A stretch of DNA of 32,000 nucleotides, taken from contig CP064992.1 in the NCBI GenBank assembly GCA_016699935.1, forward strand, positions 930,001 to 962,000. The letters are read 5' to 3'. A program made the translations under genes and the position numbers. The stretch's first letter is position 1. Each line of letters starts with the position of its first letter. The notes beneath the pieces were generated by a model. The model was not told the DNA's origin, searched no databases, and saw nothing but the letters and a program-made list of their open reading frames with translations. Positions 497 through 24,936 of this stretch are shown piece after piece. The DNA is from Candidatus Saccharimonadota bacterium. GTDB lineage: Bacteria > Patescibacteriota > Saccharimonadia > Saccharimonadales > UBA4665.

Positions 497-560
497 GTGT
501 GGGATGGGGTGAAAAACAGGGGTGGGTTTAACCGCATTTGGTAAAAAGCTGCTGCTGGGG
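497..560 (+). repeat. G-run intergenic repeat, copy C1 (core + right arm, no left arm)
   Basis: Sequence GGGATGGGGTGAAAAACAGGGGTGGGTTTAACCGCATTTGG...GCTGCTGGGG. The same core occurs at 11551, 16012, 19499 and 21869, always in the same orientation. Confidence 0.85.
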
Positions 561-582
561 AGCGGGAAATGTGCCGATGTGT

Positions 583-965
583 CTACGCTTTATCTAAATA
601 ACCGCGATAACGTCTCGGGTCTTCGCGGTTTTTGTCGTTTTTGGCATAGAGCTCAACAAACAGTATTTCATTCTCGGTCTTGACTGCTATGAATATGATG
701 CGGACTTTATCACTACGACCGAGGGCGGCGACATCGAGGCGCATTTTGATAACCTCTACACGTACATCTGTATGTATGATTGCTGCTGTCTTTCGGGCGA
801 AAACTCACGGCGATACTCGGCAAGATCGACGTCATCCGACAGCTGTGCATAGAGCGGCAAAATGTACTGCTTTGCAGCTTGCACATCGCTAGGTATCGAT
901 CGCCATTTCTTGGCAAGTCGTTTTACATCTTTTGCAAACTCTGGCGATTCCTCAAAGTTCATCAC
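583..965 (-). pseudogene. RelE/ParE-superfamily-like toxin, split by one frameshift near 755
   Basis: N-terminal part is ORF 756..965 (MMNFEESPEFAKDVKRLAKKWRS...). The C-terminal part reads in another frame as DVRVEVIKMRLDVAALGRSDKVRIIFIAVKTENEILFVELYAKNDKNREDP...DKA, stop at 583-585. The start overlaps the stop of the upstream antitoxin-like gene. Confidence 0.5.
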
Positions 966-1731
966 TCGGTTCCGTCACGGCTGTTTTGCTCGTCCGATAG
1001 AATACTCCACGGTATGCGATAGGCTTACCATCTTTTGCTGCGAGCCACGGTGTATCAAAATGTGAAAGTTCCGATAGCTCACTAGCAGTTTTGTCGCTCA
1101 ATCTAGCTAACGTTTCGTCGATGTGTAGTAATTCGTTTGCACTTAGTTTACGTAGGTCGACACTTTTATGTGGCAAATACTTTTTTGGGTATTCTTGAAG
1201 TATTTTGTCTCGACTACTTCTAACTCGTCCTTTTGTTTCATAGCTTCGACAACGCTCACAAAATCGCGAGTTGGCGTTGGGCCGAAGTGGTTGCGGACAT
1301 AGGTAAGGCCGGTAATGGATTGGCCAGTTTTTCGTAATAATCGAAGTCGATGAAGTACAACAGTTTGTAGAGCACCGTCTCGCCGACATTTGGTTTGGCG
1401 CCGACTTTTCCTAGTACATACAGCAAAACCTCACGTAGCTTTTCGGGATTTGTCTGTGGGTCGATATCACGCGGAATGATTTCTTCAGTCGTTTCAGCGA
1501 AACTATACGGAGCTGCCGGTTCATTTGCCACACTAGCAGTGCCGTCTATAAGCTCGCTCGGCGCAATCTGATAGTACTCGGCTAGCGCCTGCATCTCATC
1601 GAGGTTAGGCGGTCGCCTGTCTGCCTCAAACTCGCGTAGGTGGCACGAGCAATGCCGATAGCATCGGCTATCGTCTGCTGGCTCGCTCCAGCATTCACTC
1701 GCAATCGCTTGATTGTAGTAGTAAAGCTCAT
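952..1731 (-). pseudogene. XRE-HTH + DUF4065 (Panacea/SocA-like) antitoxin, at least 3 frameshifts
   Basis: ATG at 1731 gives MSFTTTIKRLRVNAGASQQTIADAIGIARATYA (HTH). Remaining pieces lie in three frames: EFEADRRPPNLDEMQALAEYY; LLYVLGKVGAKPNVGETVLYKLLYFIDFDYYEKL; GQSITGLTYVRNHFGPTPTRDF; LSANELLHIDETLARLSDKTASELSELSHFDTPW. Same architecture as the intact gene 5671..6396. Confidence 0.6.
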
Positions 1732-2049
1732 AATCTTTCCCCGCCCGATCATGGTTTATATTACCATAATGTTACCACGTGCTACAAAACTAGTCAATAC
1801 TATTGCTACAGTTCTAGTCAGTCCTATAGAACACGGCTAAGAAGTCGTGACTGTACAAGGCGCTAAACTAACAGTTTCCATCATGGACGGCAAAGTCTAC
1901 CTGACCGACGCCAAGGGCGGCAAAGTTATGGTAGAAGCAGCCGATGTCAAAGCAGACAACGCACCCTCTAGGTTGAATAGCTTCGGCTCCTATGCTTCGG
2001 GACTCGCTTGTATGCTTGTTTAATATTGCATAAACACTTTTTCCCGATA

Positions 2050-2133
2050 TCATTTTTGCAGATATCGCATGTCCTCACTGACTTGTTTTTTGTTAGCATT
2101 TTTCTTTTTCACATATAGTTTTGATAGTTTCAT
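2050..2133 (-). CDS. possible 27-aa lysine-rich small ORF (MKLSKLYVKKKNANKKQVSEDMRYLQK)
   Basis: AGGAGG lies 5 nt upstream of ATG 2133. The ORF is divergent from the wHTH gene. There is no other support. Confidence 0.2.
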   Translation of the reverse strand: MKLSKLYVKKKNANKKQVSEDMRYLQK

Positions 2134-2218
2134 CGATACCTCCTTTGATTAGTATTTTCAAAACGAAACTTATTTGATATACTAGTAAATGTAGTTAACT
2201 AGTAAATAAAGTATACCA

Positions 2219-2524
2219 ATGCGTACAATATACAGTCAAGAACAAATTGTTAGAACCAAAAACATTGCCAAGATCATTGGAGACTCTAGCAATGTGCTCA
2301 TTCTCTACGAGCTAATAAACTTTGGCGAAAAATCGTTCAATGAGCTAAAACGGATGACAGACATAAATGCCGTAACCCTATCCAAGAAACTAACACTTCT
2401 TAAAATGGAGGGTTTAGTTGACTATCGCGAGTGTGGTATCGAAAATCGTTATTTTGTTACTAAAAAGTCAGAGGATTTTAGGCCACTCATTCGGGACATA
2501 GAGCGTTTAATAATTAATAAGTAA
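2219..2524 (+). CDS. winged-helix transcriptional regulator (HxlR/ArsR-like)
   Basis: 101-aa intact ORF. The segment FNELKRMTDINAVTLSKKLTLLKMEGLVDY is a typical wHTH recognition helix plus wing. It lies in an AT-rich segment. Confidence 0.6.
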   Translation: MRTIYSQEQIVRTKNIAKIIGDSSNVLILYELINFGEKSFNELKRMTDINAVTLSKKLTLLKMEGLVDYRECGIENRYFVTKKSEDFRPLIRDIERLIINK

Positions 2525-2533
2525 GGAGGACAT

Positions 2534-2742
2534 ATGGGATTACTCGATATAATAAAAATCTATTTGGCGGAGCTTCTGATTTAGCACAGGGGCCTATCCA
2601 GGACGCAATTGGTGGTTTAGGCGAAATTCCTGGAGTGCAAGAAATTCAAGATGCCGTAGGTGGTGCAACTGAAGCGGCAACTTCTGCAACCGAGAAGGGG
2701 CAGTCAGCAGTTGAGAATATCACCAACAAACTAGGTTTGTAA
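2534..2742 (+). CDS. small Gly/Ala-rich protein (~69 aa) interrupted at A5 run 2554-2558
   Basis: GGAGG RBS 2526-2530, ATG 2534. With one extra A it reads MGLLDIIKNLFGGASDLAQGPIQDAIGGLGEIPGVQEIQDAVGGATEAATSATEKGQSAVENITNKLGL, stop at 2740-2742. Confidence 0.4.
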
Positions 2743-2890
2743 GCCTAGGACAAATCAAGGGTAAAATATAGGTTTGGGTTTTAATCGGGGTATGTATACG
2801 ATGATAATTTCTTGCTCACGGAGATAGAGAACGATATACATATAGCCAAAACCGGATCATGCAGCTATATAAATTATAGAAAAGCTAAAA

Positions 2891-5271
2891 TCAAGCACCA
2901 ATTGCCATGTACAGCTCACGCTGCAGTTCCAGATAGTCGCTTACTATTTCGTCAGCCGAGCCAAGGACTGAGGTAGCGTCACGCATAGTTTTGTATCGTA
3001 AACTCACGAGACTCGTGAGGTTCTGCATACTTAGCTCATTTTCGCCCTGTTTTTCATAAGTATCGAGGACAAACTTCACAAACTCACGCTCATTGTTGTC
3101 GAGTTGCTCCAGGTAATATTCGCGCACAATTCCGGCACGCTCGACGCGTGTCATTGTATCTTTGGCATAGGCAATGTAGCGTAGTACATCGTATACATCA
3201 CTTTCTTCTGCATCACAAAGCTGCTTAAGTGCTTGCAGTTTCTCCTCTTCAAAACCGCGCTCCGCCAAACCTTGCAGCAAAATTTCACGCGTGCGTGGAT
3301 CACACCACTGTTTACGCAAATCATCTTCGTCCTTAAAGAGCTCTGGTATTTGCCCAAACAATTTCTCCAAGAATTCATGTGGGCTCACGGCTCTCCCGTC
3401 CATATAGAATTTTGTATCGACTGAATATTTAATCTCGCGCTCCTTGCCGTCTCCTAGTCGAACAACCGTTTTTTGCTTCGGCTCTATAGGCACGTCAACA
3501 GCAACATCGCTACCGTCATATGCTGGCTCAGGCTCATCGGTCTCTATTTCGTCATCTTCCGGGTTACCTTGTACGACATCATCAACCACAATAGTCGCTG
3601 GCTCAGGCTCGACCACATCAGTGGTCTCAACTTCTTGCGGCTCGCCATCCCATTCGGGGTCCTCAAATTTAGTGTCGTTGCCATAAAAGTCTACAATCGT
3701 GAAATAATCTTTATCATCATATATGCGAGTACCACGCCCGACGATCTGCTTGAACTCTACCATACTACCAACGCCACGCATCAACACCACAAAACGGACA
3801 TTGCGGGCGTCTACGCCAGTACTGAGTTTACGACTTGTCGTGACTATGGTTGGCACTTGCTTTTCGTTATCACGAAATTCTTCAAGGTAGCTATCGCCAA
3901 GGGCACCTTCTGTAGAAGTTATACGAACACAATAATTACGACCGTCGCCCAGCGTTCCGGCTGGTTTATGTTTATTGATCGCATCCCGCATCATCGCAGC
4001 GTGCTTTTCATCATTACAAAACACGATTGTTTTTGATTTGGATTGATTTGTTCCAGCAGTATCTCCGCCATGCGCTCTTCGCGCTCCGGCAGATAAATCG
4101 CCTTGTTAAAATCACTCAGCGTATATTCGCGCGCCTCGTCCACTTCGCCACTTTCCACAAAATCTTGCGGGTTAAACACGTAGCGGTCCATAGTGGTAGT
4201 GATGCGCTTGACCTTAAAAGGTGTCAAAAATCCGTCTTCAATGCCTTGTCTGAGTGAGTAGGTGTAAACAGGATTACCAAAGTATTTGTAGGTGTCGATG
4301 TTGTCATCACGTTTCGGAGTAGCGGTCAGCCCTAGGTGGGTTGCGCCGTTAAAATGGTCGAGCACTGCCCGCCAGTTTCCTTCATTGCTTGCGCCGCCAC
4401 GGTGACACTCGTCTATGATGATAAGGTCAAAGTAGTCACTTGGGTAATCTCTAAAATACGGATTATCGACGGACCCCCCAGTCATCGCCTGGTAGATACT
4501 AAAGAACATACTACCATTTGTCGGAATCTTGCCCTTCTTTCGCACAGCTTCACCATTTATCCGTACCGCCATGTCGCCAAATGGCTCAAAGTCGCCCATA
4601 GCTTGCTCGACGAGTATATTACGATCAGCCAAGAACAATATGCGTGGCCGGCGTTCATCACCGCGCTTATTCCAACGCGCCTGGTATAGTTTCCATGCTA
4701 TTTGAAATGCTATGGTCGTTTTGCCCGTACCAGTTGCCAGCGTCAAAAGTACTCTGTTTTCATTACCAGAAATCGCCTTTACGGCTGCGTTTATGGCGTT
4801 TTCTTGGTAGTAGCGTGGTCGGTGTTTGATGATCTCGTACGGCTCAGTCAACGCGCGGTACTGCGCGTCATTAACATCGCTATACGTCATTACAAATAGG
4901 TCATCTGGGCTATTATAGCCGCTCACTTCTTCGCCACGGCCAGTCTTCATATCAAAGCAATAGATTCCGTGACCATTCGTACTATACACATAGCGTATCC
5001 CAAGGGTCGCCGCGTAGTCTTTCACTTGTTCTAGCCCGTCAGTAATTTCTTTGTCTTCGGCCTTCGCTTCGACTATGGCAAGTTTCTGATTTTTATAAAC
5101 AAGTACATAGTCGGCTTTTTTAGTTTTTCCGCGTTGCCCACTGCCTATCAGCCGGCCATCGGTAAATACATACTCCGACAATACAAGAGAGCCAGTAGTG
5201 ACATTTTGCCCCCAACCGCACTGGGTCAATTTTGGGTCGATCAGCTCCCGCCGGGTAGTCGCTTCGTTCAT
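2891..5271 (-). CDS. hsdR: type I restriction enzyme R subunit (HsdR), split by 1-nt indel at T5 run 4030-4034
   Basis: ORFs 3991..5271 and 2891..4024. N-terminal nuclease region (LAIVEAKAEDK), helicase motif I (TLATGTGKT), motif II (IIDECHR), then TIVFCNDEKHA and TSRKLSTGVDARNV. Restoring A6 gives NPNQK-TIVFC in one frame. Confidence 0.9.
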
Positions 5272-5287
5272 TACTACTTATTTTACA
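5199..5287. repeat. 89-bp direct repeat, copy A (functional hsdR start + upstream 16 nt)
   Basis: Aligns base for base with 6961-7049. There are 5 mismatches in the first 25 nt and the last 64 nt are identical. Confidence 0.9.
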
Positions 5288-5290
5288 GCA

Positions 5291-5695
5291 TTACAGAGAA
5301 AAGATGACACCGAGATCAACGAACTGATCTTTGATAACTTTCTTCCACTTTGCAGTTATATTTGGCCTGTCTATGTGTTCGCCTTCGGTAAACACGAATA
5401 GAACTCTCACAAGGTGTAGGTTTTCGTTTATATGCAAGATACACCTATTGCCAGACTTAGACGGACCGACTTTTGTACCTTCCACCGCGAAATCCAATTT
5501 TACCAACTTGTGTTCACCTACGCTGTTGATTAAATCGGCCTTCTTGATCCGTAGTAGCGCGTCAATACGCTTGCACATATCGTCGATGTCATCGCGAGTT
5601 TTGTCCCAATTGGATTTGTGTTTCTTTGCGAACGCCTTGATATAGTAACGCTCTGAAAAAGAATCGAATTCTACAGCGTAGTTCGAGGCTTCCAT
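5291..5695 (-). CDS. putative toxin partner of the Panacea-type antitoxin (RelE/ParE-like fold suspected)
   Basis: Intact 134-aa ORF that overlaps the upstream antitoxin by 25 nt. The motif KVGPSKSGNRCILHINENLHLVRVLFVF resembles the beta-core of RelE/ParE-type toxins. Confidence 0.55.
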   Translation of the reverse strand: MEASNYAVEFDSFSERYYIKAFAKKHKSNWDKTRDDIDDMCKRIDALLRIKKADLINSVGEHKLVKLDFAVEGTKVGPSKSGNRCILHINENLHLVRVLFVFTEGEHIDRPNITAKWKKVIKDQFVDLGVIFSL

Positions 5696-6396
5696 ATATG
5701 GTCCGGTTCTTCCTGGGTAATAAGTCCGTAAGGGATTGCCTCACCATCCCTACAGATCTGCCACGGCAATTGGTTATGAGTAAAGTCTACGATTGCCTCT
5801 GTATTGTAGCCTTTCCATACTTTACCAATCTTATCGATCATCCGCTTTTCATCTTTAGTAAGCTCACTGGCAGGTACTTCGCCATTTTCTGCTAAAGAGA
5901 GAAGCATAGCCTTGCCTTTATACTCTGGTGGGTTGATTATACCTTCTTCTTCTAGCTCATCAAGTGCGCGAAAATACACGTCCGCCACGGGCCCACGCGG
6001 TAACTTACGATAGGTCATACCGGACATCGGTGCTAGGTGATCGTAGTACCAGGTAAAATCAGCTAGGTAGACGAGCTTTGCAAGTTTCGTCTTTGTTATC
6101 TTCCCATCAGCATCCGCGCCGGCTTTAAGAGCGTTGAGAATAATTTGCTTATATTTTTTGACTGCTTCAAGCGTATTTGACAAAGTCGAAATCCCATCCG
6201 GTGCCCCAATCAAATCGCCCAATTCAACGCGCAACATAGCTGCCATTTTTTCTGCTTGCGATACAGTGATTTCTTTTTTGCCAGCCTCAATAAGGGCATA
6301 AGTCTGACGACTCATACCTAGTACCTCGGCTACTTGCTCCATCGTTAGCCCACGCGCTAGACGAGCACTTTCGAGATTCTTACCCACATTACTCAT
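5671..6396 (-). CDS. XRE-HTH + DUF4065 (Panacea domain) antitoxin
   Basis: Intact 241-aa ORF. N-terminal HTH (LTMEQVAEVLGMSRQTYALIEAGKKEITVSQAEKMAAML). DUF4065-like core (TKLAKLVYLADFTWYYDHLAPMSGMTYRKLPRGPV ... FTHNQLPW). Confidence 0.8.
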   Translation of the reverse strand: MSNVGKNLESARLARGLTMEQVAEVLGMSRQTYALIEAGKKEITVSQAEKMAAMLRVELGDLIGAPDGISTLSNTLEAVKKYKQIILNALKAGADADGKITKTKLAKLVYLADFTWYYDHLAPMSGMTYRKLPRGPVADVYFRALDELEEEGIINPPEYKGKAMLLSLAENGEVPASELTKDEKRMIDKIGKVWKGYNTEAIVDFTHNQLPWQICRDGEAIPYGLITQEEPDHIWKPRTTL

Positions 6397-6426
6397 AGTG
6401 TTGTCCTTCGTTTGTTATTTGTTTTT

Positions 6427-6455
6427 AGTTTAGCGTACTTAACAGTATATGTCAA
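6427..6455 (-). promoter_or_regulatory. sigma70-like promoter for the TA operon
   Basis: On the minus strand: TTGACA (6455-6450), 17-nt spacer, TAAACT (6432-6427), about 30 nt upstream of ATG 6396. Confidence 0.45.
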
Positions 6456-6458
6456 GAA

Positions 6459-6480
6459 ATACAACATAGTCAACTTGTAT
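6459..6480. promoter_or_regulatory. inverted repeat ATACAA-N10-TTGTAT, candidate operator for the HTH antitoxin
   Basis: Perfect 6-bp arms immediately upstream of the -35 element. Confidence 0.3.
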
Positions 6481-6669
6481 TTTTAACATCCGTCTGTTAG
6501 GATAGAGGTAATTCGGAGAGGAATCCGGAGGGTAAAAATAGGAAAAGCGCCTATCCAGCGCTTCCTTATACAAGAATGTTCCTCAACAAATTGTATAGCT
6601 CCTATCTTACCACATATAGAATTAAGTGGTAATTCCGCCGCAAACCGAAAGAAAGGAGCTACAACAACT

Positions 6670-6900
6670 ATGGCAGGCAAACAAGTCCACACTACCTACA
6701 GCAAGCAAGCTGGCAACTGGCGCAATGTTTCCGCTGGCTCAAGCCGACCGGCAAAGGTGTACGACACCAAGGTGCAGGCACAAACCGCTGGCCGCCAACA
6801 GGCGATCAACAACAAAACCGAGCATGTCGTTCACAATCAGAACGGCCAGATTGCTTCACGCAACAGCTACGGTGGCGATCCGCACCCACCAAAGGGCTAG
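6670..6900 (+). CDS. DUF2188 domain protein
   Basis: Intact 76-aa ORF with AGGAG upstream. The C-terminus NGQIASRNSYGGDPHPPKG matches the family hallmark ...SYGnDPfPPKG. Confidence 0.7.
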   Translation: MAGKQVHTTYSKQAGNWRNVSAGSSRPAKVYDTKVQAQTAGRQQAINNKTEHVVHNQNGQIASRNSYGGDPHPPKG

Positions 6901-8212
6901 GTCACATCACCGCCAAAAGAGGCACTCTCTATGAGGCCTCTTTGGTTTGCTAACTCATCGTGACATTCTAGCCCCAACCGCATTCGGTCAATTTTGGGTC
7001 GATCAGCTCCCGCCGGGTAGTCGCTTCGTTCATTACTACTTATTTTACACTCACTTTGAGAAAACGCTTGCGTCAGCAAGGATTGCTTTAGTGTGCGAAG
7101 CATACTAACTTTTGACTGATATTTTGCAATCAACGAAGATAACTTCGCAGAAATATCATCAAGTTTCTTTATGATCTCATCTTGATCTGATATCGATGGT
7201 AGCGTAAATGCATACGCAAACAAGTGAGGCCTATTCACTTTCGGCATACCGGCTCTATCTGAACCAGAAATGGCATATTGAGTAAAGTCATTTGATAATA
7301 GTAGATAATATAAGTAGTCTCGCCTTACCTCATTGGTGGGAAGAAGCGGGTAAATATCCGCGCTACACAAACCAGAAAAATCTGGTCGGACAACCTTTTT
7401 GAGGTATGGACGTATTTTGCTATACAAGACCATTGTTCCATCAAAAGGAAACTTACTAGAAATTAGCTTCTCTTCTTTCGCCATTTTTAAGTTGATTAGC
7501 TGCCCTGTTTCAGGCTCAATGTTCGCACCACCAACATGCAGGCACTCGTTATATGGCTCATATCGAGGATCAATTAATTTTGAGTCTATGGTGCAAACAT
7601 CTCCTAGACATTGTTCTTCACCTATTACATTTCTGAGAATCTCAGTGTATAACCGATAGTACAGAGTCCGAGTATATTGAATATTCTTCTCCGTCAACTC
7701 AATAGCCCGATCAATCTTCTCAAAAGCTGCGTCCAGCCGCTCTACCACCCGCCGTTGCTCTTCGAGCGATGGGAGATATATATCAAGTGATTGTAGTTTT
7801 GTTATTGTTAATGTGTCTACGGTCGTTCCGTTACTCAAGCTGCTCGAAAAATGCTGCTGATTTAAACCATTGGTTTACGTAGCCACTCGGTCAACATCAC
7901 TAGTTTTTTTCAGCCAAAGGACACTCGCGTCTTTAAAATAAAACTTCTCATTTGCCTGTACGATATAGTATTACCTATTGTCCCTATAGCGGTGATCATG
8001 ATGTCGCCTTCTGTTGGGACCCCGTTCTTATGCGAAAGATCATTGTATAAATCTTCAGAAATGTATAGTTCATTGTTTGCATTACCCGTTTTTGATAGCC
8101 TCGTAATTTCACGCCCACGATAAAACGGTATGCCCGAGCTTTTCCACTGTGATTTCAACACTCTTCTGCTAGAGCTAATGGTAAATGTGTCGCCAAGCTT
8201 CACAGTTTTCAT
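6897..8212 (-). CDS. hsdS: type I R-M specificity subunit (HsdS), two TRDs, at least 2 frameshifts; the last ~50 codons read through the hsdR remnant and are probably not native
   Basis: ORFs 7910..8212 and 6897..7838. Conserved spacer helices LPSLEEQRRVVERLDAAFEKIDRAIEL and LPSISDQDEIIKKLDDISAKLSSLIAKYQSKVSMLRTLKQSLLTQAF. Stops in the other two frames cluster at 7040-7055, just before the hsdR-remnant ATG. Confidence 0.85.
6913..6945 (+). terminator. weak hairpin downstream of the DUF2188 gene
   Basis: CCAAAAGAGGC-12 nt-GCCTCTTTGG (one bulged A) followed by TTTGC. Confidence 0.3.
6961..7049. repeat. 89-bp direct repeat, copy B (hsdR 5' remnant next to hsdS)
   Basis: See copy A. The repeat period is 1762 bp. 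Confidence 0.9.
6968..7033 (-). pseudogene. 21-codon remnant of the hsdR 5' end
   Basis: ATG 7033 reads MNEATTRRELIDPKLTECGWG then TAG. The true HsdR N-terminus is MNEATTRRELIDPKLTQCGWGQ. Confidence 0.85.
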
Positions 8213-9271
8213 TCGGAGTAAACTCCCTTTAATATTTCAAGCCTCGCTAATAGCCCGTCATACGTCATAATAATGTTTTTTCATCGCCTTACGAAAAAAC
8301 GAGAATGAGCGTCTTTTTGTCTTCATCCATTGATGAAGTATTGCGATCGCCAATCAACAAGATGCCCATGGGATCAAGACGATTTAGGTCAGAAAAGTCC
8401 GCCCGAGCATTGTCTGAAAGTCGTTAACGGCAACACGTATTTGATTCTCCATCTGGACAAGACTTCCGGTTAGCTGAGCAGACATGGAATAGCAGATATT
8501 CTCTCTTCCTTCATCGTCTCCTCTATATTGTCCGCCAACAAGCGGTGTTGTAGGAGGCTTTATTTCAACAACAGCAAAACTACCATTCGCACCATTTAAG
8601 AACAGCTGGTCTGTCGCTACGCCACCTTGGCCGTTTCTCCCACGCGTGTTCTTGCCGCCTACATATGTCTCGCCTTGCATATAGTAGAGCGGGAAATGAA
8701 AGATCTGTTGGATAATCCAGGAATTATTATCAAAATAATCCTGCCAAAAGGATTCAACCCTGTTTCCGAGGTTTTCCCGTATGAAATCTATTGCTGTCTG
8801 AAGCTTTGCAGTTGCAACAGCATTTTCTATGGAACGAAAATTATTAGCCTCAAGCTCTCTTAGTTTTCCGATGATCAGATCACGATTTGCACCATCGCTA
8901 ATTTGCAGAAGTATTCCTTCAGCATTGTTATCTGCGAGAGAAAAAGTTGTATCACCATATCGGTGTCCCCACTGCTCTAGCAAGGCCTTGATTCTTTCGA
9001 GGTTAGAGAATAATGTCGCCATGTCTTCACCACTGAGATTCAGTTCGTATGCCTCATCTCGATGGAGGGTTGTAATTGACCTGCCCTCGAATTCTTCCCA
9101 TGTCTCATTTCTACCCTTTTTTTCAAAGCGAAAGCCCCCGCGTAAGTGATTATCGGACGCATCAACCCATATTGGATAAAAAAATAATCTGGTTGAGCCG
9201 GTTTCATGTAGGGGTATCGGGCTAACATCCATAGTCCCTGCTGAAGTCGAATGAGTATTTATCTCAGGCAT
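8209..9271 (-). CDS. DUF4263 / Shedu (SduA)-like PD-(D/E)xK nuclease with unassigned N-terminal domain; C-terminal 60 codons reached through three homopolymer frameshifts, two traced to T6 8276-8281 and A6 8294-8299
   Basis: ORF 8384..9271. Motifs SFWQDYFDNNSWIIQQIF ... GGVATDQLFLNGANGSFAVVEIKPP ... SAQLTGSLVQMENQ. The continuation reads DPMGILLIGDRNT...IIIMTYDGLLARLE. Stop TGA overlaps the hsdS ATG (ATGA at 8209-8212). Confidence 0.55.
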
Positions 9272-9285
9272 ACTGAACCTTTAGC

Positions 9286-9848
9286 CTATTCTTGCTCATT
9301 TTTTTCTGCTTTGATTGTATTTAACACTTGCGCAAGCTTGTATGCACTAATATTCAAGATATCCATAATCGCAGCATTAGTGTGACCTTCACTCTTAAGC
9401 TGTTTGACGAGGTCTTTCCTTTTTTCATGCAAATTATCCTGAAATTCATAAAATTTCTGAGCTTCATACCATCCCAGGCTTTCATTCCAAATATTTGGAA
9501 TGTAGAAAGTGATTGTACGCGTGTTTCCTGCCTCATAATGATAACCAAGCAAGATCGTGATAATATCCAACGCATTCACAAATAGCTTTCTGTAGTCATC
9601 CTCGCTCTTTGCGGCACCAAGTTCTTTCTCTATACGCTCAAGGTAGAGTCTACATGCGCTCTTGAAATGACTATCTGCAATCAAATCATCGATATCTTGC
9701 CTGAGTTTTTTGACCAAAGTCTTCACATCTTTTTGAAATATTTTGGATTTTGGTATGCAGAAGCAAACCCATAATACTTGTCCCCAAAAACGTTTCGCAT
9801 CAACATTTCGGTACGCATTCCGTCGCTATAGTATCTAGATTCAGTCAT
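9286..9848 (-). CDS. hypothetical ~187-aa protein with C-terminal HTH-like segment; frameshift at T5 run 9730-9734
   Basis: GGAG lies 8 nt upstream of ATG 9848 (MTESRYYSDGMRTEML...YFKK). That piece joins ORF 9286..9726 if the A5 run is read as A6. The C-terminus is GHTNAAIMDILNISAYKLAQVLN. I recognise no family. Confidence 0.4.
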
Positions 9849-9870
9849 TATCTATACGTCTCCGAGACGA

Positions 9871-11332
9871 TTATTGTTCATAGGCTAAGGTCCTCAGTAT
9901 TTCAGCAACTTCTTTATCGATTTGCTTGATATCCTCTAAAATATCCTCTGGTGTTTTTAGTTCTTCGGCTTCTGGCGCGAAGGGGTTTTTGACACCTAGG
10001 TCGAAGGTGGTTTGGTCGAGGTCTTCGGCTTTGACCGTCCATGAGTTTTCACTGGTTTCTCGGGTTTTGAACTTTACCAGGAAATCGTCGAAGTCGTGAA
10101 TGTTCAGCGGATTGGTTTTACCGAGGTTGCGACTAGGGTTGAGTTGGTAGTACCAAATATCCCGCGTTGGTTCGCCTTTGCGGAAAAACAGCACCACGGT
10201 TTTGACGCCGGTCGAGCCAGTCGCGCTAAACACACCGCCTGGCAGGTCAAGGATGGTATGTAGGTTAAAGCCTTGCAGCAGCTCTTTACGAATCTTGCCC
10301 GTCGCGCCATTTGGCTCATTGGTCAGGAATGTGTTTTTATAACTATCGCCGCTTCACCGCCAGTACGAAGATTCTTCATGAAGTGCTGTAGAAATAGGTT
10401 TGCAGTTTCACGAGTCGGGATTTTGAAGTTGCGCTGAACTTCAGGGCGCTCATTGCCACCGAATGGTGGATTTGCCAGTATATAATCAAACCGATCTTTT
10501 CCTGAATGTCGCGCGTGTCTTCATTGAGCGTGTTAGCATGCACCATGTTTGGCGATTCTATGCCGTGCAAAATCATATTCATCGTGCCCAGTAGGTATGG
10601 CTCTGGCTTTTTATTCTTGGCAAAGAACGTACGCTCTTTTAGAAAAGACAGTTCGTTCGCCATTTTCCTGGCTGCGTAGGTAGGCATAACTTTCGGTTAA
10701 AAACCCTGCCGATCCTGCTGCGCCGTCATAGATAGTTTTGCCCAGTTTTGGCTGCACCGCCTGAACCATAGCCTGTATAAGTGGTCGCGGCGTATAAAAC
10801 TCACCGCTGCGCCCTGCTCCACCCATAAGCTTCAAACGATCTTCATATAATGCAGATAACTGGTCAAGCTCATCCTGAGTCTGAAATTGAAGATTGTCGA
10901 TGATATCTATCACTTCCCGGAGGTTGCGCCCGCTCTGAATCTTATTTGTGATTTCACCAAATATTTCGCCGATTTTGTAGGTCAGCGTTTTGGGGTCATT
11001 TTCGGCATTTTTGAACGAGCGAAGGTATGGGAAAAGCTGGTGATTCACAAAGCCCGTCAGATCATCGCCTGTCATTTGCGCAGATATATCGGGTGAACCA
11101 TCTGCTTTCTTTGGTGCCGCCCATATGTCCCACTGGTGTTCGGTCTTAAACAACGGCTGGTACGCAATCTGGTGCAGTGTCGCTTCGTCCTTGCGCACCT
11201 CTTCAAGGTCGTCAAGATATTTCAAAAAAGAATCCATGACATCTGTGCCATGTAGTCATTCGCACCATTTGTCCCCGCATCCTCAAACAGGATATTGTCT
11301 ATGCGTTTAAATTCAGCTCTAATATCAGCCAA
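9871..11332 (-). CDS. hsdM: type I R-M DNA methyltransferase subunit (HsdM), at least 3 frameshifts
   Basis: Pieces 10611..11237, 10376..10687 and 9871..10233/10104..10319. The N-terminal HsdM domain (MSWILF|LKYLDD) is restored by adding one T at the run 11224-11229. SAM motif GEFYTPRPL...IYDGAAGSAGFL. Catalytic NPPFG is read as ANPPFGGNE in the shifted frame near 10450. Candidate TTG start at 11332 after AAGGGGG. Confidence 0.9.
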
Positions 11333-11507
11333 GAGGACCCCCTTCTCTGTTCTCAGTATACCCTCTCTGCCCCTGTTTTCTACGCTCTACTCGCTTGACT
11401 CCATTCTTTGGCGGCGTTCGCCCATGGTCTCGCCTTCGTATGACCAGTAGGCAGTACCAGAGACAACATTACTATAGCCGAGTACTTGTTGTGCAGCGGT
11501 GGAATGA

Positions 11508-11640
11508 GAGGACAGTCCTGTAACAGGTGAAGAAACTCATTATTTCGTTTGGGATGGGGTGAAAGATAGGGGTGGGTTTTACCGCGTTTGGTTTTGGTGG
11601 CTGGGACGCCCTGCTCCGTTGCTGCGACATACTATGTAGA
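11508..11640 (+). repeat. G-run repeat, copy C2 (left arm + core + right arm)
   Basis: GAGGACAGTCCTGTAACAGGTGAAGAAA...CGTTTGGGATGGGGTGAAAGATAGGGGTGGGTTTTACCGCGTTTGG...GGCTGGGACGCCCTGC. Confidence 0.85.
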
Positions 11641-11672
11641 TCCGAGTTCAAACAGACGAGGAGCATGAGGGG

Positions 11673-13875: not shown

Positions 13876-14139
13876 CTAGACTTTGCCGGTGCGTTTGCGG
13901 TGTGGGCAGCCCTGCCAGCAACAGGGGCGGCGCATACCGCTGGACATTTTGGAAAGACCGACTTCTATGCGGCGCTGGCGGGTTTCGGCTTTTTTGGCCT
14001 CCTCGACCCAGCAAATCCATTCGTTGCGAGCCAGTGGTGTTATAGCCTGCCACAGTAGCAGGACTTTTGGAGTCGAACTAATCGCCTCCCGAAAATCCGG
14101 GGGCAGTTTATGGACAGTACCTTCAGAGAGTTTTGACAT
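13876..14139 (-). CDS. YdeI/OmpD-associated (OmdA) family protein
   Basis: Intact 87-aa ORF. Motifs ITPLARNEWICWVEEAKKAETRQRRI and RRPCCWQGC. Paralogue at 15684..15960. Confidence 0.7.
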   Translation of the reverse strand: MSKLSEGTVHKLPPDFREAISSTPKVLLLWQAITPLARNEWICWVEEAKKAETRQRRIEVGLSKMSSGMRRPCCWQGCPHRKRTGKV

Positions 14140-14271
14140 TACTCCACCATTTTACCCCACTTTGCAGCAAAACAGTTTAGTTAAATGAACCTAACTCGTT
14201 TTGCTGTAAATATTTTTACAATACCTGGCTGTAGTGTTTGATAAACTTGTATTTGTAGATAAGGAGAAGGT

Positions 14272-15683: not shown

Positions 15684-15960
15684 ATGTCTTCTGCTAAAAT
15701 TGAAAGCGGAACAGTACACCCCTATGCCAGCAGACCTAAAAGGCATGCTTCAAGCAGACAAGAAAGTTTTGATGGCTTGGAATGACATAACACCGCTAGC
15801 ACGCAACGAATTTATCTGCTGGGTCATAGATGCCAAAAAACCAGAGACACGGGCAAAACGCATACTGGTCGCAAGAGACAAACTAACCCGCGGCGAACGT
15901 CGCCCCTGCTGCTGGATCGGCTGCATACACCGCCCAGCAAACCTCCCAGCCCGTCCATAA
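15684..15960 (+). CDS. YdeI/OmpD-associated (OmdA) family protein, paralogue of 13876..14139; frameshift at C4 run ~15717-15720
   Basis: ATG 15684 gives MSSAKIESGTVH, which parallels MSKLSEGTVH of the paralogue. ORF 15700..15960 then has ITPLARNEFICWVIDAKKPETRAKRI and RRPCCWIGC. Confidence 0.65.
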
Positions 15961-16010: not shown

Positions 16011-16050
16011 TGGGATGGGTGAAAATACTGGGGTGGCTTCACTTGGGACG
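16011..16050 (+). repeat. G-run repeat, copy C3 (short, degenerate)
   Basis: TGGGATGGGTGAAAATACTGGGGTGGCTTCACTTGGGACGC. It keeps the core and the TGGGACGC right-arm motif. Confidence 0.6.
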
Positions 16051-16230
16051 CATATTGGGGATTTGGCGAGTAGGTTTAGAGGCCGAGAACTTGTTTGAAC
16101 TTTGCTTGATCGAAGCCCAAAATCTTTGTTTCATGGCGCTGTCATCTTTCAGAACCGTAAATGGTACACCAAAATTACCATCATTGACACTCATAAACTC
16201 TGCCATTGCATGCTCGTCTTCGTCTGCCAT
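16039..16230 (-). CDS. doubtful small ORF (63 aa from internal Met)
   Basis: Part of ORF 16039..16260. Its 3' end runs into repeat C3, and I see no RBS or family signal. Confidence 0.2.
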   Translation of the reverse strand: MADEDEHAMAEFMSVNDGNFGVPFTVLKDDSAMKQRFWASIKQSSNKFSASKPTRQIPNMRPK

Positions 16231-16338
16231 TTTTCGTGTAGGGTATATTTTCCTTATCAAGCCAGGCAGTTAGTAGGTGGCAAAAGGCGCAGGTTGTGGT
16301 TGAGTAAATAGTTATTTGCATAAAGCCTCCGATGTATC

Positions 16339-18055
16339 TTAGCTCCCAAAGGTAAACGCATTTATGGTGACGCCCGCTGGGAAAGTTAGTTGTAATGTTT
16401 TGTTGGTCATGAAATTATCTGCTTTGACAATCTTGTATAGACGAGCCTGGTCGATCTTGACTTGGCCACTAGTATTTACATCGGCTCCGCCAGGGGCGCT
16501 TAGCTCGTCAACCGAGACGCCAACTAGTGCCCCCGGAGGCCCGCTCATAACTAGGTAAACTTCTTTCGCCGAAAAGTTTATATTTAACTTCGTGTTTTGC
16601 GCCAGGCTTTGGCTGGATTCGCCGTCCATCTGCCACTTGCCACCGAGCGACCATTCGTGCTCTTTTTGAACCACTCACCAAGGTGTAATCGACTGGCTGA
16701 TTTGCTACAAATTGATCGGCGTTAGCAAAGCGTTCGGCGCGCTTAAATCGAGGTATGTCTCTGGTGTTTGGCCACGCACGGCTGAGCTCGCGCTACGCTC
16801 TATTTCTAGCTTTGCAGTCACCGTTTTGCCAGACTCTTTGAGAAGTGCTTGGATGGTCTGTTCTGTTTCGGCATAGTCTCCCTCGCCAAAATGGGTGTAG
16901 CGCACCTGACCGTCTTTGTCTATCAAGTATTTGGCTGGCCAATATTGGTTTTTCGTATGCCCGCCACGTTGAAAAGTCATTATCGAGAGCCACCGGGTAC
17001 TTTATGCTCGCGTCTTTGGTAGCATTCTCAACATTTGAGGTAACTTTCTCAAATGCAAACTCGGCGCATGGACGCCGAGTATCACCAGCCCGTCGTTTCG
17101 GTACTTGTCATACCAAGCGTTTAGGTACGGCTGAGTCCGCTGACAATTTATGCACGAATAGGTCCAGAAGTCTACCAGTACAACTTTTGCCCTTTAGCCC
17201 TGATATCGTCTGTGGGCTGCTATTTACCCACGCTGCAATATTCTTAATTTCCGGTGCATTGTAGGGGTCAACATTATATTTTGTTTTGCTTGTTGGGCCA
17301 GTGCTGCTTATCCTTGCCGAGCTTGTGCTTTTGGAACAAGTTTTTCTTCTACTAGTTTGATATTCAGAAAATCTTTTCCACCAAATAGGTTTGCACTTTT
17401 TATCCCACCCTGTAACTACAAAGACCCCGACTAGGATGAATAGCACAGCGATACCTCGCTGAAACCATCCCTTGGGATCACTCGCCCATTTTATTCGCAC
17501 TAACAGTTTGCGCCCTAAAAGGGCGATAGCTAAGAGTGATGTCGCTACGCCCAAACAATAGATAGCCAGGTAGAAAACGCCTAGTAGAGTGCTGCTTGGC
17601 AGGACTGATGCAATAACCCAGGCATAGGTGGGGCTACAGCTGCTAAAAATTGGGCCAAGCGCGGCACCGATCAAAATTGCCGAAAGCGTTGCGTTTTTTT
17701 GTTTGTAGGCTTTGCCGAGCAAGCCTTGGGACCTATGCTCTATTCCCAACCTGCCAATTATTTGCACCCACGCATTTGGAAATAACATGAAGAAACCTAG
17801 AATAATCACCAATACTCCTGAGCCGATAGACCAAACCTTAGGGTCAATACCGATAAAGACAGTCGACGCTTTCAAAAGGATTGTAAACAACACTAGCGAC
17901 ACAACTAGACTGGCGGTGATTATATACGGCCGCCATTTGTCCTTTTTCTCTCCGGCCAAGCTGCCGCCGAGGATTACTGGCAGTAGTGGTAGCACGCATG
18001 GGGCTAAGGCAGTCAGAAGCCCCGCGACATATGAAAGAAGTGCTGTTACTAGCAT
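16339..18055 (-). CDS. DipZ-like thiol:disulfide interchange protein (CcdA/DsbD membrane domain + TlpA-like thioredoxin domain + C-terminal beta domain), at least 3 frameshifts
   Basis: ORF 17108..18055 carries CcdA motifs (LTALAPCVLPLLPVILG, GPIFSSCSPTYA). A shifted frame gives VVLVDFWTYSCINCQRTQPYLNAWYDKY. ORFs 16705..16980 (QYWPAKYLIDKDGQVRYTHFGEGDY) and 16339..16674 continue it. Confidence 0.8.
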
Positions 18056-18069
18056 ATCGGTCTAACCCT

Positions 18070-18698: not shown

Positions 18699-19064
18699 CT
18701 ATTCACCGTCTTTGGCGCGTTGGACAATAATCTTAGTCGCAATCATCGCCATTAAGGCTATAGGGATGGCTGAGTCTAGCTGGTGTCTAAGGCTTTGAAT
18801 GATTAAGGCAGTTATAAGTACAAGCGCACCGACAAAATAGGCTGAACGACTAGCAAGTGCTTGGTTTTGCATTTCGCGCTCGTCTTCGGGTTGTTCGCGC
18901 CACAGTAGTACCAAAAATGTAGCAATCAGCCCCAGCACGACTGCCAGTATCAGCATTTGCAAGCTCGAAGGCATGACAAAGGTTTTTGGAGCGATGGCTA
19001 GTAGCGTGATGACGGCTAGGCCGAGTAGCAGCACGACGTCGAGTAATTGTTTATATTTTTTCAT
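18699..19064 (-). CDS. small membrane protein (4 TM) co-transcribed with the XRE regulator
   Basis: Intact 121-aa ORF whose start overlaps the 3' end of 19051..19275. Confidence 0.5.
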   Translation of the reverse strand: MKKYKQLLDVVLLLGLAVITLLAIAPKTFVMPSSLQMLILAVVLGLIATFLVLLWREQPEDEREMQNQALASRSAYFVGALVLITALIIQSLRHQLDSAIPIALMAMIATKIIVQRAKDGE

Positions 19065-19275
19065 AACGAAATATCTCCTCCACCTTACGCCCTAGTATAG
19101 CGGCAATTCGCAGTGCAAGCAGCACACTTGGCACGTAATTGCCTTTTTCTATGGCGATAATAGTTTGACGCGTCGCTTGGACCTTTTCGGCCAGGTCATC
19201 TTGGGTAATCTTAAGAGCGATCCGTGTCTCACGTACCTTATTCACCACTGTATGTTCTTTGTCTCGTATAAACAT
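19051..19275 (-). CDS. XRE/Cro-type HTH transcriptional regulator
   Basis: Intact 74-aa ORF: LKITQDDLAEKVQATRQTIIAIEKGNYVPSVLLALRIAAIL. Confidence 0.8.
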   Translation of the reverse strand: MFIRDKEHTVVNKVRETRIALKITQDDLAEKVQATRQTIIAIEKGNYVPSVLLALRIAAILGRKVEEIFRYEKI

Positions 19276-19367
19276 AATGTAAGCTCAACCGTACATATTG
19301 TAACACAATCAAGATTAAAGTGGAATAAAATGAAACCTGATTCTCAAAACTGTTTCTCATGTACTTT

Positions 19368-19432
19368 TGTCATTCCCGCGAAGGCGGGAATCCATTCCAT
19401 TTATCTGGATCCCAGCCTTCGCTGGGATGACA
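19368..19432. repeat. 65-bp palindromic mini-element with TGTCAT...ATGACA termini
   Basis: TGTCATTCCCGCGAAGGCGGGAATCC...GGATCCCAGCCTTCGCTGGGATGACA. It holds two perfect hairpins (ATTCCCGC/GCGGGAAT and TCCCAGC/GCTGGGA). A related element lies at 31764-31862. Confidence 0.7.
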
Positions 19433-19444
19433 TCGTGGGGTTTT

Positions 19445-19613
19445 GAGGCTCAGGTAATGACAGTCCTCTTACAGATGATTAAACTCAAGAATACGTTTGG
19501 GATGGGGTAAAAGATAGGGGTGGGTTTAACCGCATTTTTCTAATATTGTCTGCTGGGTCGGCTGCGCCTCTTTCATAAAACCATGCTCGTAGTAAGCTCC
19601 TGCTCGTGGTTTT
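19445..19613 (+). repeat. G-run repeat, copy C4 (left arm + core + long right arm)
   Basis: ...ATGACAGTCCTCTTACAGATGATTAAACTCAAGAATACGTTTGGGATGGGGTAAAAGATAGGGGTGGGTTTAACCGCATTT...CTGCTGGGTCGGCTGCGCCTCTT...CATGCTCG. Confidence 0.85.
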
Positions 19614-19677
19614 ATTTCAGTTGCACCAGAATACCTGTGACATCTGGCTCTAGAACCCAACAGCCAAAACCAAACAA

Positions 19678-19702
19678 AAAACCCCTCCTATACGAGGGTT
19701 TT
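19678..19702 (-). terminator. rho-independent terminator downstream of the DUF2075 gene
   Basis: On the minus strand: AAAACCCTC-GTATAG-GAGGGGTTTT followed by TTGTTTGGTTTTGG. Confidence 0.65.
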
Positions 19703-19789
19703 GTATTTAGCTCAGCTTGTTGGTCGCGGATGATTAACAGGTCAAAATCCTACGAACGGTACTGAAAGTTATTTTGTCCAATACTCGTA

Positions 19790-21749
19790 TCAATAACCAG
19801 TGTCTCTTGATTGTCCAACTAGCTCTTCTATTCCAATAGATTTGAAGTAATTAAATGTAGAGTCATAAAACTCTTGTTTCCTCGTTGCATCAGGGGATAA
19901 TTACCGTTCGGCAAGAAAATAATCATACCTTGTCTAGCCCTTGTTAAGAGCACGATAAGCATTTTTGCTTCTTGTTGATTTGATATGTTATTTTGCCATA
20001 TTATGCCTTTGAGCTGGTACTTTTTGAATTAAAATATTGCCAATCAGCTACATTAAAACGCATGTCAGCGTCCCAGCAAACTAGTGAATAATCAAGCTCT
20101 AACCCTGGCATACAAACTCCGAGGCTGCATCCTCTAAGAAATATGAGCTTTTGTTGTTTTCTTTTTCGCCTAAGAAATAGTGGACTTCGTTAATACCCTT
20201 ATTGCTATCTATGGCAAATGGTATCAGTCTTTGCGCTCTACTGGTGGCTAGCATTCCTGGACGCTCTGTACCTTTTTGTTTGTTTTCTTATCCAATCTTT
20301 AGCAATTTTTAGATCGCGAGTTATTTTTATTGGATATGCGTCTTCTAGCTCTTATAGATATTAGCCGCAGAGGCGTCGATATCTAGCAGCGCTTTTACAA
20401 AAATTAGACAATTTTCAGCTCTAAATGAACGCATGGAAGTCGCTAGATGGAGTTCGTGATATTTTTGTGCATTATTTGGCACATTCGAAACATTATATTC
20501 AGAATCGACTAAGTTCGGCGATATTGCAATTTGCCAGTCCGCCGGGACAGCATCAACCCATGCACTAATGCCAGCTTCGCCTTTTTTTTGAGCTCTTGTC
20601 CACCGCCAACAAGGCAGACTATACACGCCCAATCTTTGTGTCTATCCAGGGTATGAATTAAAAACCAGATTCAGATTCGCCATGAACCCACTGCCTTTTC
20701 TTTCTATTCATCCAATTTGTGATAGTATTACCATCCCAGGCTCTCTGAGCTTCATCAAAGATTGCCACATGTTCGCTGGGTGGATTTTCGTCATTAATGT
20801 ACTCATCGCGATAGTGGTGAACTATTTGTATAAACGATTTAACTTTATTTCTGGCATAACCTATCCGAATACCATTTTTGTCCTTCTCGTCTCTCGCCAG
20901 CGCTTCAGTCAGTACGTTTACAAGTGGCCCGTTGCCAGACAATAGTACGGCATGATCTTCTGAATTTGAGTCTCTTTTTGGGTTGCTATATTTAATCCAA
21001 CAAGAGTTTTCCGGCTCCAGGAACGCCTGTAACAAAAATAATTGTCTTTTTGTTGTTTTGCATTTGCAGTCATCAATTATTTCATTTATTTTCTTGCACG
21101 TTGTAGTTATGTTGTCACCTGCCTCGCTTCGAGTGATGTCTTCAACGCTGTGGCCTGAATACAATTCTCTTGCTGCTTCGATTATTGTCGGAGTCGGTTT
21201 GTACGGTGACTCTTCCCATCCTTCAGCTCCGTTACCGGTCAAATATTCAATAGATCCCACATAATCTTTTAAATGAATACTGCCCAAACAGTCAGCGCCT
21301 TCAATATTTCGTGGCTCACCCCTATATTCTGATACTACTAATGCCGGGAATATATCGGCTTTATGTGAACCTAAATGAAAATTTTTTAGCTCAAGCATAT
21401 AGTCAATTACTTGGTCTATGTCTTTAGCTATAAATTTATTTTGTCCAATTTTAAATTCTAATAAAACAATGTGCGGACTATCAGAATGTATTAACAAAAT
21501 TACGTCTATTCTCCTCCCCATACGAGGAATAACAAATTCTAAAAAAATAGTGGCATTATCAATATCGCATAGTTGGTCTTTTAGGATTTCAATTTCGGAA
21601 CGCCACGTTTCAAATTGTGGTTGCTCGACATTAAATCCATCGCGAATACTGCCCTGTGATAATTGGCCAATAATAGAATCATTGTTTTGTTGAAGAAAAT
21701 CAGCTACTGATGATTTGTACCAACTTGCATTTAAGAGCCTTGTGGCCAC
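19790..21749 (-). CDS. DUF2075-type protein (N-terminal PD-ExK-like nuclease module + P-loop ATPase/helicase-like domain), many frameshifts in the C-terminal two thirds
   Basis: ORF 20658..21749 has [25 protein letters not shown] and [16 protein letters not shown] 20345..20632 and shifted fragments down to 19790 continue it ([52 protein letters not shown]). The true start may be ATG 21761 (MSKK) if the A5 run is A6. Confidence 0.65.
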
Positions 21750-21826
21750 TTTTTACTCATAAACACATTCTACTATAGATCGTTTAATATTTGGTAAATC
21801 AGGTCATGGAGCTCTGCTGGGGCTAT

Positions 21827-21965
21827 GAGGACAGTTCTCTAACACATTAAGAAAATGTGAATACGTTTGGGATGGGGAGAAAGACAGGGGTGGGTTTAAC
21901 CGCATTTGGCAAGTTTCGGCTGCTGGGACGGCTACGCCTCTTCCGCTGCGGCATGCTCGTTAACC
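21827..21965 (+). repeat. G-run repeat, copy C5 (left arm + core + right arm)
   Basis: GAGGACAGTTCTCTAACACATTAAGAAAATGTGAATACGTTTGGGATGGGGAGAAAGACAGGGGTGGGTTTAACCGCATTTGG...GCTGCTGGGACGGCTACGCCTCTT...CATGCTCG. Confidence 0.85.
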
Positions 21966-24929: not shown

Positions 24930-24936
24930 CATAATT

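Follow-up and report, generated by a model that had tools for sequence, protein, structure and literature searches.

Recombinases acting at att or attC sites, or palindromic mobile elements, are the usual explanation for repeats that organise variable islands. In attC sites, imperfect inverted repeats (R''-L'' ... L'-R') allow one strand to form a hairpin; the sites share the core-site consensus GTTRRRY and accompany cassettes with a single open reading frame (ORF); REP/BIME, ERIC, Correia and MITE-type repeats contain palindromic or terminal inverted repeats and occur in both orientations. Saccharibacteria, the group considered here, have very small genomes and few regulators. In Neisseria gonorrhoeae, a promoter adjoining the G-quadruplex (G4) of pilE produces a cis-acting small RNA, whose transcription begins within the G4 motif and lets the G-rich strand fold (PMC3547852). 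Here we analysed a 32-kb window, i.e. the whole stretch of DNA under study (positions 930,001 to 962,000 of contig CP064992.1, assembly GCA_016699935.1, from the metagenome-assembled genome of an uncultured Candidatus Saccharimonadota bacterium), which contains a family of G-rich direct repeats. The family comprises four full copies of about 150 nt (C1, C2, C4 and C5) and one degenerate, core-only copy (C3), all on the + strand; copy counts, motif counts and scores given below refer to this window. We tentatively favour, as a possible reading of the sequence, a strand-specific, G4-prone cis element at transcription-unit boundaries, the copies of which would also be recombination joints.

Copies of the repeat and their distribution

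The core of the repeat is a G-rich sequence of 45 nt, GTTTGGGATGGGG-N9-GGGGTGGGTTTAACCGCATTTGG. A search with the pattern GGGATGGGG-N9-GGGGTGGGTTTAACCGCATTTGG gave matches at 501, 11551, 19499 and 21869, all on the + strand and with 0–2 mismatches; none was expected by chance, as judged by 100 shuffles. Repeat finding in the window independently grouped C1, C2, C4 and C5. An nhmmer profile built from the copies matched 472–615, 11506–11658, 19454–19606 and 21825–21973 (~145–150 nt each), and nothing further rose above noise in the window, including the tRNA region and the core region at 25–32 kb. The preliminary description of this DNA had reported five same-orientation copies of one non-coding family, and the pattern search, the repeat finding, the profile and the alignment score of C3 all agree with it. 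Similarity in the arms fades gradually on both sides without sharp termini. Successive copies are separated by 11050, ~4460, ~3490 and 2370 nt, unlike the regular spacing of ~60–75 nt between the 28–37 nt repeats of a CRISPR array.

The genes on either side of C1 (472–575, +; core 497–541; nhmmer E 9e-36) converge on it: the + strand gene 8..481, whose stop codon overlaps the C1 left arm, and a - strand toxin ORF that stops at 583. Part of this left arm is unique to C1, and in the right arm homology to the remaining copies extends over only ~25 nt. C2 (11506–11658, +; core 11547–11591, two mismatches; E 9e-42) is flanked by the stop of a 172-aa membrane-protein gene (11673, -) and the start of hsdM (11237, -). 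C4 (19454–19606, +; core 19495–19539, two mismatches; E 5e-42) is located between the end of a DUF2075 gene, with its terminator (19683–19698), and the start of a helix-turn-helix (HTH) gene (19275, -), and C5 (21825–21973, +; core 21865–21909, exact pattern match; E 2.5e-46) between the stop of an SRPBCC gene (22087, -) and the DUF2075 start (21749, -). The degenerate C3 (16009–16047, +; TGGGATGGGTGAAAATACTGGGGTGGCTT-CACTTGG; E 0.0055) consists of the core only and lies between the convergent ends of an OmdA-like gene (+, ending at 15960) and a glutaredoxin gene (-). It carries a 6-nt deletion, and its fourth G-tract has shrunk to GG. Its local alignment scores were 28–34.5 against a null maximum of 24 from ~2,900 windows; C3 is a genuine but decayed member of the family.

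All five copies were confirmed to be in intergenic spacers. The spacers of C2, C4 and C5 separate co-oriented - strand genes, those of C1 and C3 are convergent, and the 3' end of a - strand gene precedes the spacer of every copy (5/5). The preliminary description had also placed the copies exactly at functional boundaries. They do lie between gene blocks; 'exactly' is too strong, because no fewer than four independent systems fall within the single block 616–11505 (two Panacea toxin-antitoxin (TA) pairs, a type I restriction-modification (R-M) system, Shedu and an HxlR regulator), and the claim is weak because any intergenic site separates genes by definition. The motif GCTGGG(A/T)CG, said to follow the core, was exact in C2, C4 and C5 and altered in C1 (GCTGGGGAG) and C3 (CTTGGGACG).

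Collection scans, which were exact searches for the 20 specified bases of the G-rich block within the core (the G block), detected no relatives among 185,579 GTDB species representatives, 241 million JGI metagenome records and IMG/VR. The exact matches were chance G-rich sequences without the AACCGCATTTGG tail. BLAST against phage and plasmid collections was empty. Copies were also absent from 13 related Saccharibacteria loci, nine around smpB/tRNA-Asn (SmpB 78–82% identity) and four around the closest DUF2075 homologues (66–73%), with loci L027 and L028 covered by the nhmmer run across all loci. The repeat seems to represent a lineage-restricted, apparently orphan and previously undescribed non-coding family. 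A 17-mer of the core, GGGGTGGGTTTAACCGC, occurs in the unrelated viral contigs L029, L031, L032, L034 and L035. These IMG/VR contigs were rejected as homologues, since there the 17 nt form the 5' half and loop of ordinary terminator hairpins (GGGGTGGG-TTTAACCG-C(C/T)(C/T)ACCCC, then T runs). The 8-nt loop of the viral hairpins is common to at least four different sequence contexts.

The conserved core and its G-quadruplex motif

Core identity was 87–93% in all six pairs of full copies, whereas identity among the same copies was 44–71% in the left arm and 28–76% in the right arm. When C2, C4 and C5 were aligned, 38 of the 45 core columns were invariant, compared with 42 of 84 flank columns (Fisher p = 1e-4). 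This contrast indicated that the core has been preserved, either here or in elements that delivered the copies. The 29-nt G block has the layout GGG-AT-GGGG-N9-GGGG-T-GGG in the four full copies and a weaker version in C3. All four of its variable columns fell inside the 9-nt central loop (p = 0.005), and the G-tracts and the 2-nt and 1-nt loops contained none. That only the central loop of the block varies suggests that the constraint acts on the G-tracts or on a pair of G-rich half-sites.

The four invariant G-tracts are separated by loops of 2, 9 and 1 nt, and thus provide the sequence requirements of an intramolecular G4 on the + strand: four runs of at least three Gs, short loops and high G4Hunter scores. 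On both strands of the window, motifs with four such runs (loops ≤12 nt) were found only in the five copies, all on the + strand; Markov simulations gave a mean of 0.47 and a maximum of 3. The top five G4Hunter windows were the five copies as well, with scores of 1.88–1.96 in the full copies and 1.52 in C3. From these features we infer that the core may fold into a G4.

The + strand serves as the template for the island's mostly - strand genes and as the non-template for a weak outward promoter-like site in the left arm. The G-rich + strand of the copies opposes the local GC skew. The 78-nt windows with the highest + strand G-over-C excess include C1, C2, C3 and C5, where the + strand contains 38–42% G and 9–12% C; the - strand RNA has the reverse composition. 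A start-Gly-stop mini-ORF was noticed in the first G block, ATG GGG TGA in C1 (504–512) and C2 (11554–11562) and ATG GGG TAA, with the stop retained, in C4 (19502–19510); C5 has AGA instead. It is probably a coincidence.

The promoter-like element of the C4 left arm (19457–19485, +) reads ATGACA-17 nt-TAAACT and has 9/12 matches. Homologous sites are present in C2 (11509–11537, +; AGGACA-17-GAAACT, 7/12) and C5 (21828–21856, +; AGGACA-17-GAAAAT, 8/12). In these three copies the -35 hexamer overlaps an imperfect palindrome (AGGACnGTCCT), and the -10 hexamer ends 12–13 nt before the first core G. Hairpins with T runs follow on the + strand 80–100 nt beyond the C1 and C4 cores. The one in C4 (19575–19622, +; ATAAAACCA...TGGTTTTAT) is terminator-like, lies ~80 nt past the core and includes the CATGCTCG block, which is kept in C4 and C5; its CATG/CGTG stem holds a + strand G.U pair, the counterpart of which on the - strand is a C.A mismatch. 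The analogous hairpin of C1 is at 597–645 (+), and C2 and C5 have no convincing terminator. The promoter-like pair and the downstream hairpin outline a possible + strand unit of 120–150 nt. Between C4 and the HTH gene, at 19362–19440, there are two adjacent, mutually inverted GC-rich hairpins, TTCCCGC-GAAG-GCGGGAA and ATCCCAGC-CTTC-GCTGGGAT. Their pattern has a single exact match in the window, and the - strand leader at 19260–19575 folds far better than shuffles (z = -4.1); a REP-like pair or a regulatory leader is conceivable. An anti-Shine-Dalgarno or leader interaction between the C-rich strand and downstream 5' untranslated regions was considered and rejected, as the - strand leader folds had no consistent partner.

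A search in and around the copies revealed no conserved inverted repeat. RNA and DNA folds of the repeat units on both strands were equal to or worse than those of shuffles (z mostly +0.1 to +1.5). Folding an alignment of the copies, a check proposed in the preliminary description, gave two covarying pairs on each strand; the consensus fold was weak, with RNAalifold energies of -11.75 kcal/mol (+) and -1.95 kcal/mol (-) from only four sequences. An Rfam scan of the window returned only tRNA-Asn at the gathering threshold, and relaxed scans (E ≤ 10) of the regions of C2 and C5 gave nothing relevant. With regard to integron attC/CALIN arrays, the copies showed no inverted repeats (single-stranded DNA folds z +0.1 to +1.5), no recombinase domain was present in the scanned window ORFs, and the blocks between copies are multi-gene units of 2–11 kb, not single-ORF cassettes. 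The copies contained no palindromic stem-loop unit of 20–40 nt as in REP/BIME, and no terminal inverted repeats, target-site duplications or sharp ends as in MITEs. The lack of a hairpin or inverted repeat, together with folds no better than shuffles, excludes the attC, REP/BIME and MITE architectures. The repeat profile had no match at 24.5–25.1 kb, and the repeats of the tRNA-Asn 3' end located there are a separate set. The Rfam, fold and inverted-repeat tests thus bear out the earlier view that no described REP, MITE, attC or riboswitch family is involved.

The accessory island and its tRNA-Asn border

The tRNA-Asn gene (24937–25011, -) forms the right border of the island and is separate from the repeat family. 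To its left lie ~24 kb of accessory DNA, mostly coding on the - strand: two Panacea/SocA-type TA pairs, an HxlR-type regulator, a type I R-M operon enclosing a Shedu gene, a block of small genes, an HTH-membrane protein-thioredoxin-DipZ-glutaredoxin operon, a DUF2075/PDC-S41 gene and three AT-rich orphan genes. No integrase, transposase or recombinase domain was detected among the window ORFs scanned, in agreement with the preliminary description. The Shedu (SduA) gene (8384–9726) sits between hsdS and hsdM, inside the type I R-M operon (6897–11237), and the DUF2075 gene matches the PADLOC candidate system PDC-S41, indicating that the region is a compact defence island in a 1.2-Mb epibiont genome. 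Two OmdA/YdeI-like paralogues in the small-gene block, at 13879–14151 (-) and 15700–15960 (+), both match one gene of the relative L018.

Direct repeats unrelated to the G-rich family were also observed. A 90-nt repeat of the hsdR start (5198–5287 and 6960–7049, 94% identical) consists of 16 nt of upstream sequence and the first ~24 codons, MNEATTRRELIDPKLT(Q/E)CGWG. Its copies bracket an HTH-Panacea (SocA-like) antitoxin and a putative toxin (5291–6396) between hsdS and hsdR, and the upstream copy is a truncated pseudo-start with a terminal stop codon; the arrangement looks like a module insertion that regenerated the 5' end of hsdR. An ~85-nt repeat (22622–22701 and 24020–24097, ~80% identical) brackets a 421-aa orphan gene, the second case in the island of a single gene between direct repeats, and holds a hairpin (GTCAGAAC...GTTCTGAC) that, flanked by A and T runs, resembles a bidirectional terminator.

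At the right border, 16-nt copies of the tRNA-Asn 3' end were located at 24582–24597 and 24766–24781 (-) in addition to the tRNA itself, as expected from the earlier report of tRNA-Asn-derived repeats at 24582. The ~170-nt units between the repeated 3' ends (24582–24936) are not random filler. The unit 24766–24936 is ~80% identical to L018 10690–10900, which follows the tRNA-Asn of that relative (SmpB 79%), and the conserved part includes a diverged T-arm copy and the same 16-nt 3' end. No Rfam match was obtained for the unit. It may be a small tRNA-like RNA or, alternatively, an att-arm conserved within a family of elements that target tRNA-Asn.

The right-hand 7 kb are syntenic with related Saccharibacteria loci (surface protein, smpB, glycosyltransferases and glycosyl-hydrolase-like genes), and tRNA-Asn follows smpB in three of those loci too. 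In the relative L021 (SmpB 82%), a large serine recombinase at 5886–7540, which has no gene call in the record, lies directly after tRNA-Asn, indicating that this tRNA gene is an integration hotspot in the lineage. The SmpB of the window is QQS18201.1 and its DUF2075 fragment is QQS18196.1 (100% identity each); the nearest other SmpB relatives among 5.8 billion clustered proteins have 82% identity. Many genes throughout the window are split by frameshifts, among them hsdR (2891–5271), hsdM (9871–11237, three pieces), DipZ (16039–18055), DUF2075 (19828–21749) and a syntenic core gene at 30459–31454. The fragments were deposited as such, QQS18196.1 being a 363-aa DUF2075 piece. Since frameshifts occur even in the conserved syntenic region, they probably reflect an indel-prone long-read assembly rather than true pseudogenes.

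Interpretation and comparison with known systems

If the repeat is a G4-prone boundary element, transcription, either reading through from the upstream - strand gene or initiated at the repeat's own promoter, would open its duplex. The G-rich strand would then fold, with the C-rich strand left unstructured or held in an RNA-DNA hybrid, and a polar, strand-specific barrier or mark would result at the end of the transcription unit. The copies are direct repeats and hence obvious substrates for homologous recombination; recombination between them could duplicate, delete or swap blocks, which would account for the module-like layout. We infer, in this sense, that the repeat may be transcribed and may have a boundary role and a recombination role. 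A bolder version makes the copies transcription-activated G4/R-loop sites that act as programmed recombination hotspots, through which this epibiont with its reduced genome could duplicate, delete or exchange whole defence and accessory modules without a dedicated recombinase. We regard this version as very doubtful; by analogy, it would apply pilE-like initiation to island architecture instead of antigenic variation.

Several observations weigh against a G4-based boundary element. The conserved core reaches past the G-tracts (TTTAACCGCATTTGG), which a G4 alone does not account for, and a bipartite protein-binding site would fit the same pattern of core conservation. G4 formation itself is a sequence prediction only, and the lengths of the G-runs are somewhat uncertain because of the many assembly frameshifts. 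The argument for selection rests on few independent sequences, as there are only four full copies, all from one genome, and gene conversion limited to the core could mimic selection on it. The loss of a G-tract in C3 means that at least one copy is not maintained, and copies are missing from many further gene ends in the island. Promoter matches of 7–9/12 are at background, sites with at least 9/12 matches numbering 22 against 16.6 expected.

The copies might instead be junction scars of serial site-specific integration, the accretion model of the preliminary description, in which each module would have carried an attP-like site with the 45-nt core and left a copy at every joint; a shared target would keep the core alike, and the arms would differ as coming from different related elements. 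Direct repeats in one orientation at accessory-block joints near the tRNA-Asn hotspot suit this model, as do the largely unique left arm of C1 beside its flanking gene, where C2, C4 and C5 have a common left arm, the other direct repeats that flank modules (D2 on either side of a TA pair, D5/D6 on either side of the 421-aa gene) and the serine recombinase after the tRNA-Asn of a relative. However, the scanned window ORFs include no recombinase or transposase, the core has no dyad symmetry and is most variable at its centre, and C5, at the right end of the series, has a right arm in common with C4 (76%) in place of a unique chromosomal one. No matching site was found in IMG/VR or in the phage or plasmid collections, the closest DUF2075 homologues in other Saccharibacteria (66–73%) lack the element, and several systems make up the largest 'module', itself a mosaic. 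Taken together, we consider integration scars rather unlikely. A functionless or selfish dispersed repeat, whether the remnant of a non-autonomous element or a segmental duplication, is another somewhat improbable account. Its core would be kept alike by gene conversion or low mutability, and its position at boundaries would reflect only the tolerance of insertions between genes. The family is confined to this genome as far as public collections show, C3 is clearly decaying, an intergenic site is the default for any tolerated repeat, and the island contains other, unrelated direct repeats. Such a repeat would nevertheless lack the terminal inverted repeats, target-site duplications and hairpins of MITEs and REPs; with free orientation, 5/5 copies would agree by chance in 1 of 16 cases, and neither the sharp contrast between core and flanks nor the variation confined to the loop is expected under plain neutrality.

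Transcripts of either strand were also considered. The copies could be sibling small RNA genes on the + strand, each with a weak sigma-70-type promoter, an unstructured G-rich 5' region (a seed or an RNA G4), a variable body and a terminator. The homologous -35/-10-like pair with 17-nt spacing in C2, C4 and C5, a TATGAT 7 nt before the C1 core and the + strand hairpins with T runs 80–100 nt past the C1 and C4 cores are consistent with such genes. So are the G.U pairs of the C4/C5 hairpin, which would be C.A on the - strand, its two compensatory differences (ACCATG/CGTGGT in C4, GGCATGC/GCGTGCC in C5) and the strongest conservation at the 5' end, which is typical of seed regions. Against them stand the lack of an Rfam match, the weak consensus fold (-11.75 kcal/mol with two covarying pairs from four sequences), the lack of a convincing terminator in C2 and C5 and promoter scores at background; the + strand gene upstream of C1 needs the C1 terminator in any case, and variation at the centre only is not expected of a base-pairing seed. 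Small RNA genes are unlikely in our judgement. On the - strand, the repeat might be an entry site for Rho that insulates neighbouring transcription units. All copies lie past - strand gene ends, and the - strand RNA is C-rich and G-poor, among the most skewed compositions in the window, and less structured than shuffles; the 78-nt stretches at C1, C2, C3 and C5 share with Rho utilisation (rut) sites, which are C-rich, G-poor and unstructured over at least 70 nt past a stop codon, a likeness of composition and not of termination. A rut site requires composition and not ~90% identity over 45 nt, though, and two intrinsic terminators already precede C4; we consider a Rho site quite unlikely. The idea that the - strand encodes a small protein or a fragment of one, or that the repeat is a relic of an hsdR-like 5' end, is effectively refuted. 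The frame ..PNAVKPTP(I/V)F(H/Y/L)PIPN.. is open across the core in all four copies, ORF 11472..11666 is intact, C2 and C5 have an ATG start and differ by an in-frame 6-nt indel, and another frame of the repeat loosely resembles the HsdR N-terminus. This small - strand ORF (the NAVKPTPIFHPIPN frame) was rejected: it had no homologues among 5.8 billion clustered proteins, HMMER against 1.84 billion representatives matched only translations of unrelated repetitive DNA, there was no Pfam match, substitutions by codon position were 26/25/21 without three-base periodicity, and C4 contains in-frame stops. The absence of homologues also supports the earlier dismissal of ORFs overlapping the repeat as spurious. 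The hsdR relic, suggested by weak nhmmer matches (E 0.07 and 0.68) at the duplicated hsdR start and by the look-alike translation, was rejected too, since the similarity is at background (Smith-Waterman 16–23; null distribution with mean 16.7 and 99th percentile 26).

Comparison with the known repeat classes gives partial likenesses. Like attC/CALIN arrays, the family consists of same-orientation repeats that follow the 3' ends of co-oriented gene blocks, no recombinase being close by, and GTTAAAC on its - strand fits GTTRRRY; unlike them, the copies have no inverted repeats, fold worse than shuffles and delimit multi-gene blocks of 2–11 kb. With REP/BIME, ERIC, Correia and MITE repeats the family shares a short, non-coding, genome-specific, multi-copy nature and an intergenic position, often near gene 3' ends, whereas it is strand-asymmetric (G-rich), has no hairpin and occurs in one orientation. 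As in tRNA-linked islands, direct repeats lie between accessory blocks beside a tRNA gene, but the family has no tRNA similarity, no associated integrase and no dyad symmetry. The family comes with neither a recombinase among the window ORFs scanned nor a palindromic structure, and its preserved part is a strand-asymmetric, G4-capable core. If the copies were integration scars, they would suggest that Saccharibacteria host a so far unknown integrative element whose site is asymmetric and unusual. If they were a structure-forming boundary or recombination signal, they would offer Saccharibacteria a simple, protein-independent way of organising and reshuffling defence modules.

The closest parallel to a G4-prone boundary element is pilE. 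In both cases an intergenic, G4-capable motif has a promoter or, here, a weak promoter-like match directly upstream on the G-rich (non-template) strand, is oriented away from the neighbouring gene and belongs to a locus that is, or here may be, shaped by recombination. The pilE motif is one compact 16-nt G4 with short loops, whereas the repeat described here has five copies, a 9-nt central loop and a unit of 150 nt. At pilE, gene conversion takes place between homologous pilin copies, as established experimentally; here, the blocks between copies encode unrelated proteins rather than homologous exchanging cassettes. If a G4 function holds for this family, it would be a second bacterial example of the pilE paradigm, in which a G4 is induced by transcription.

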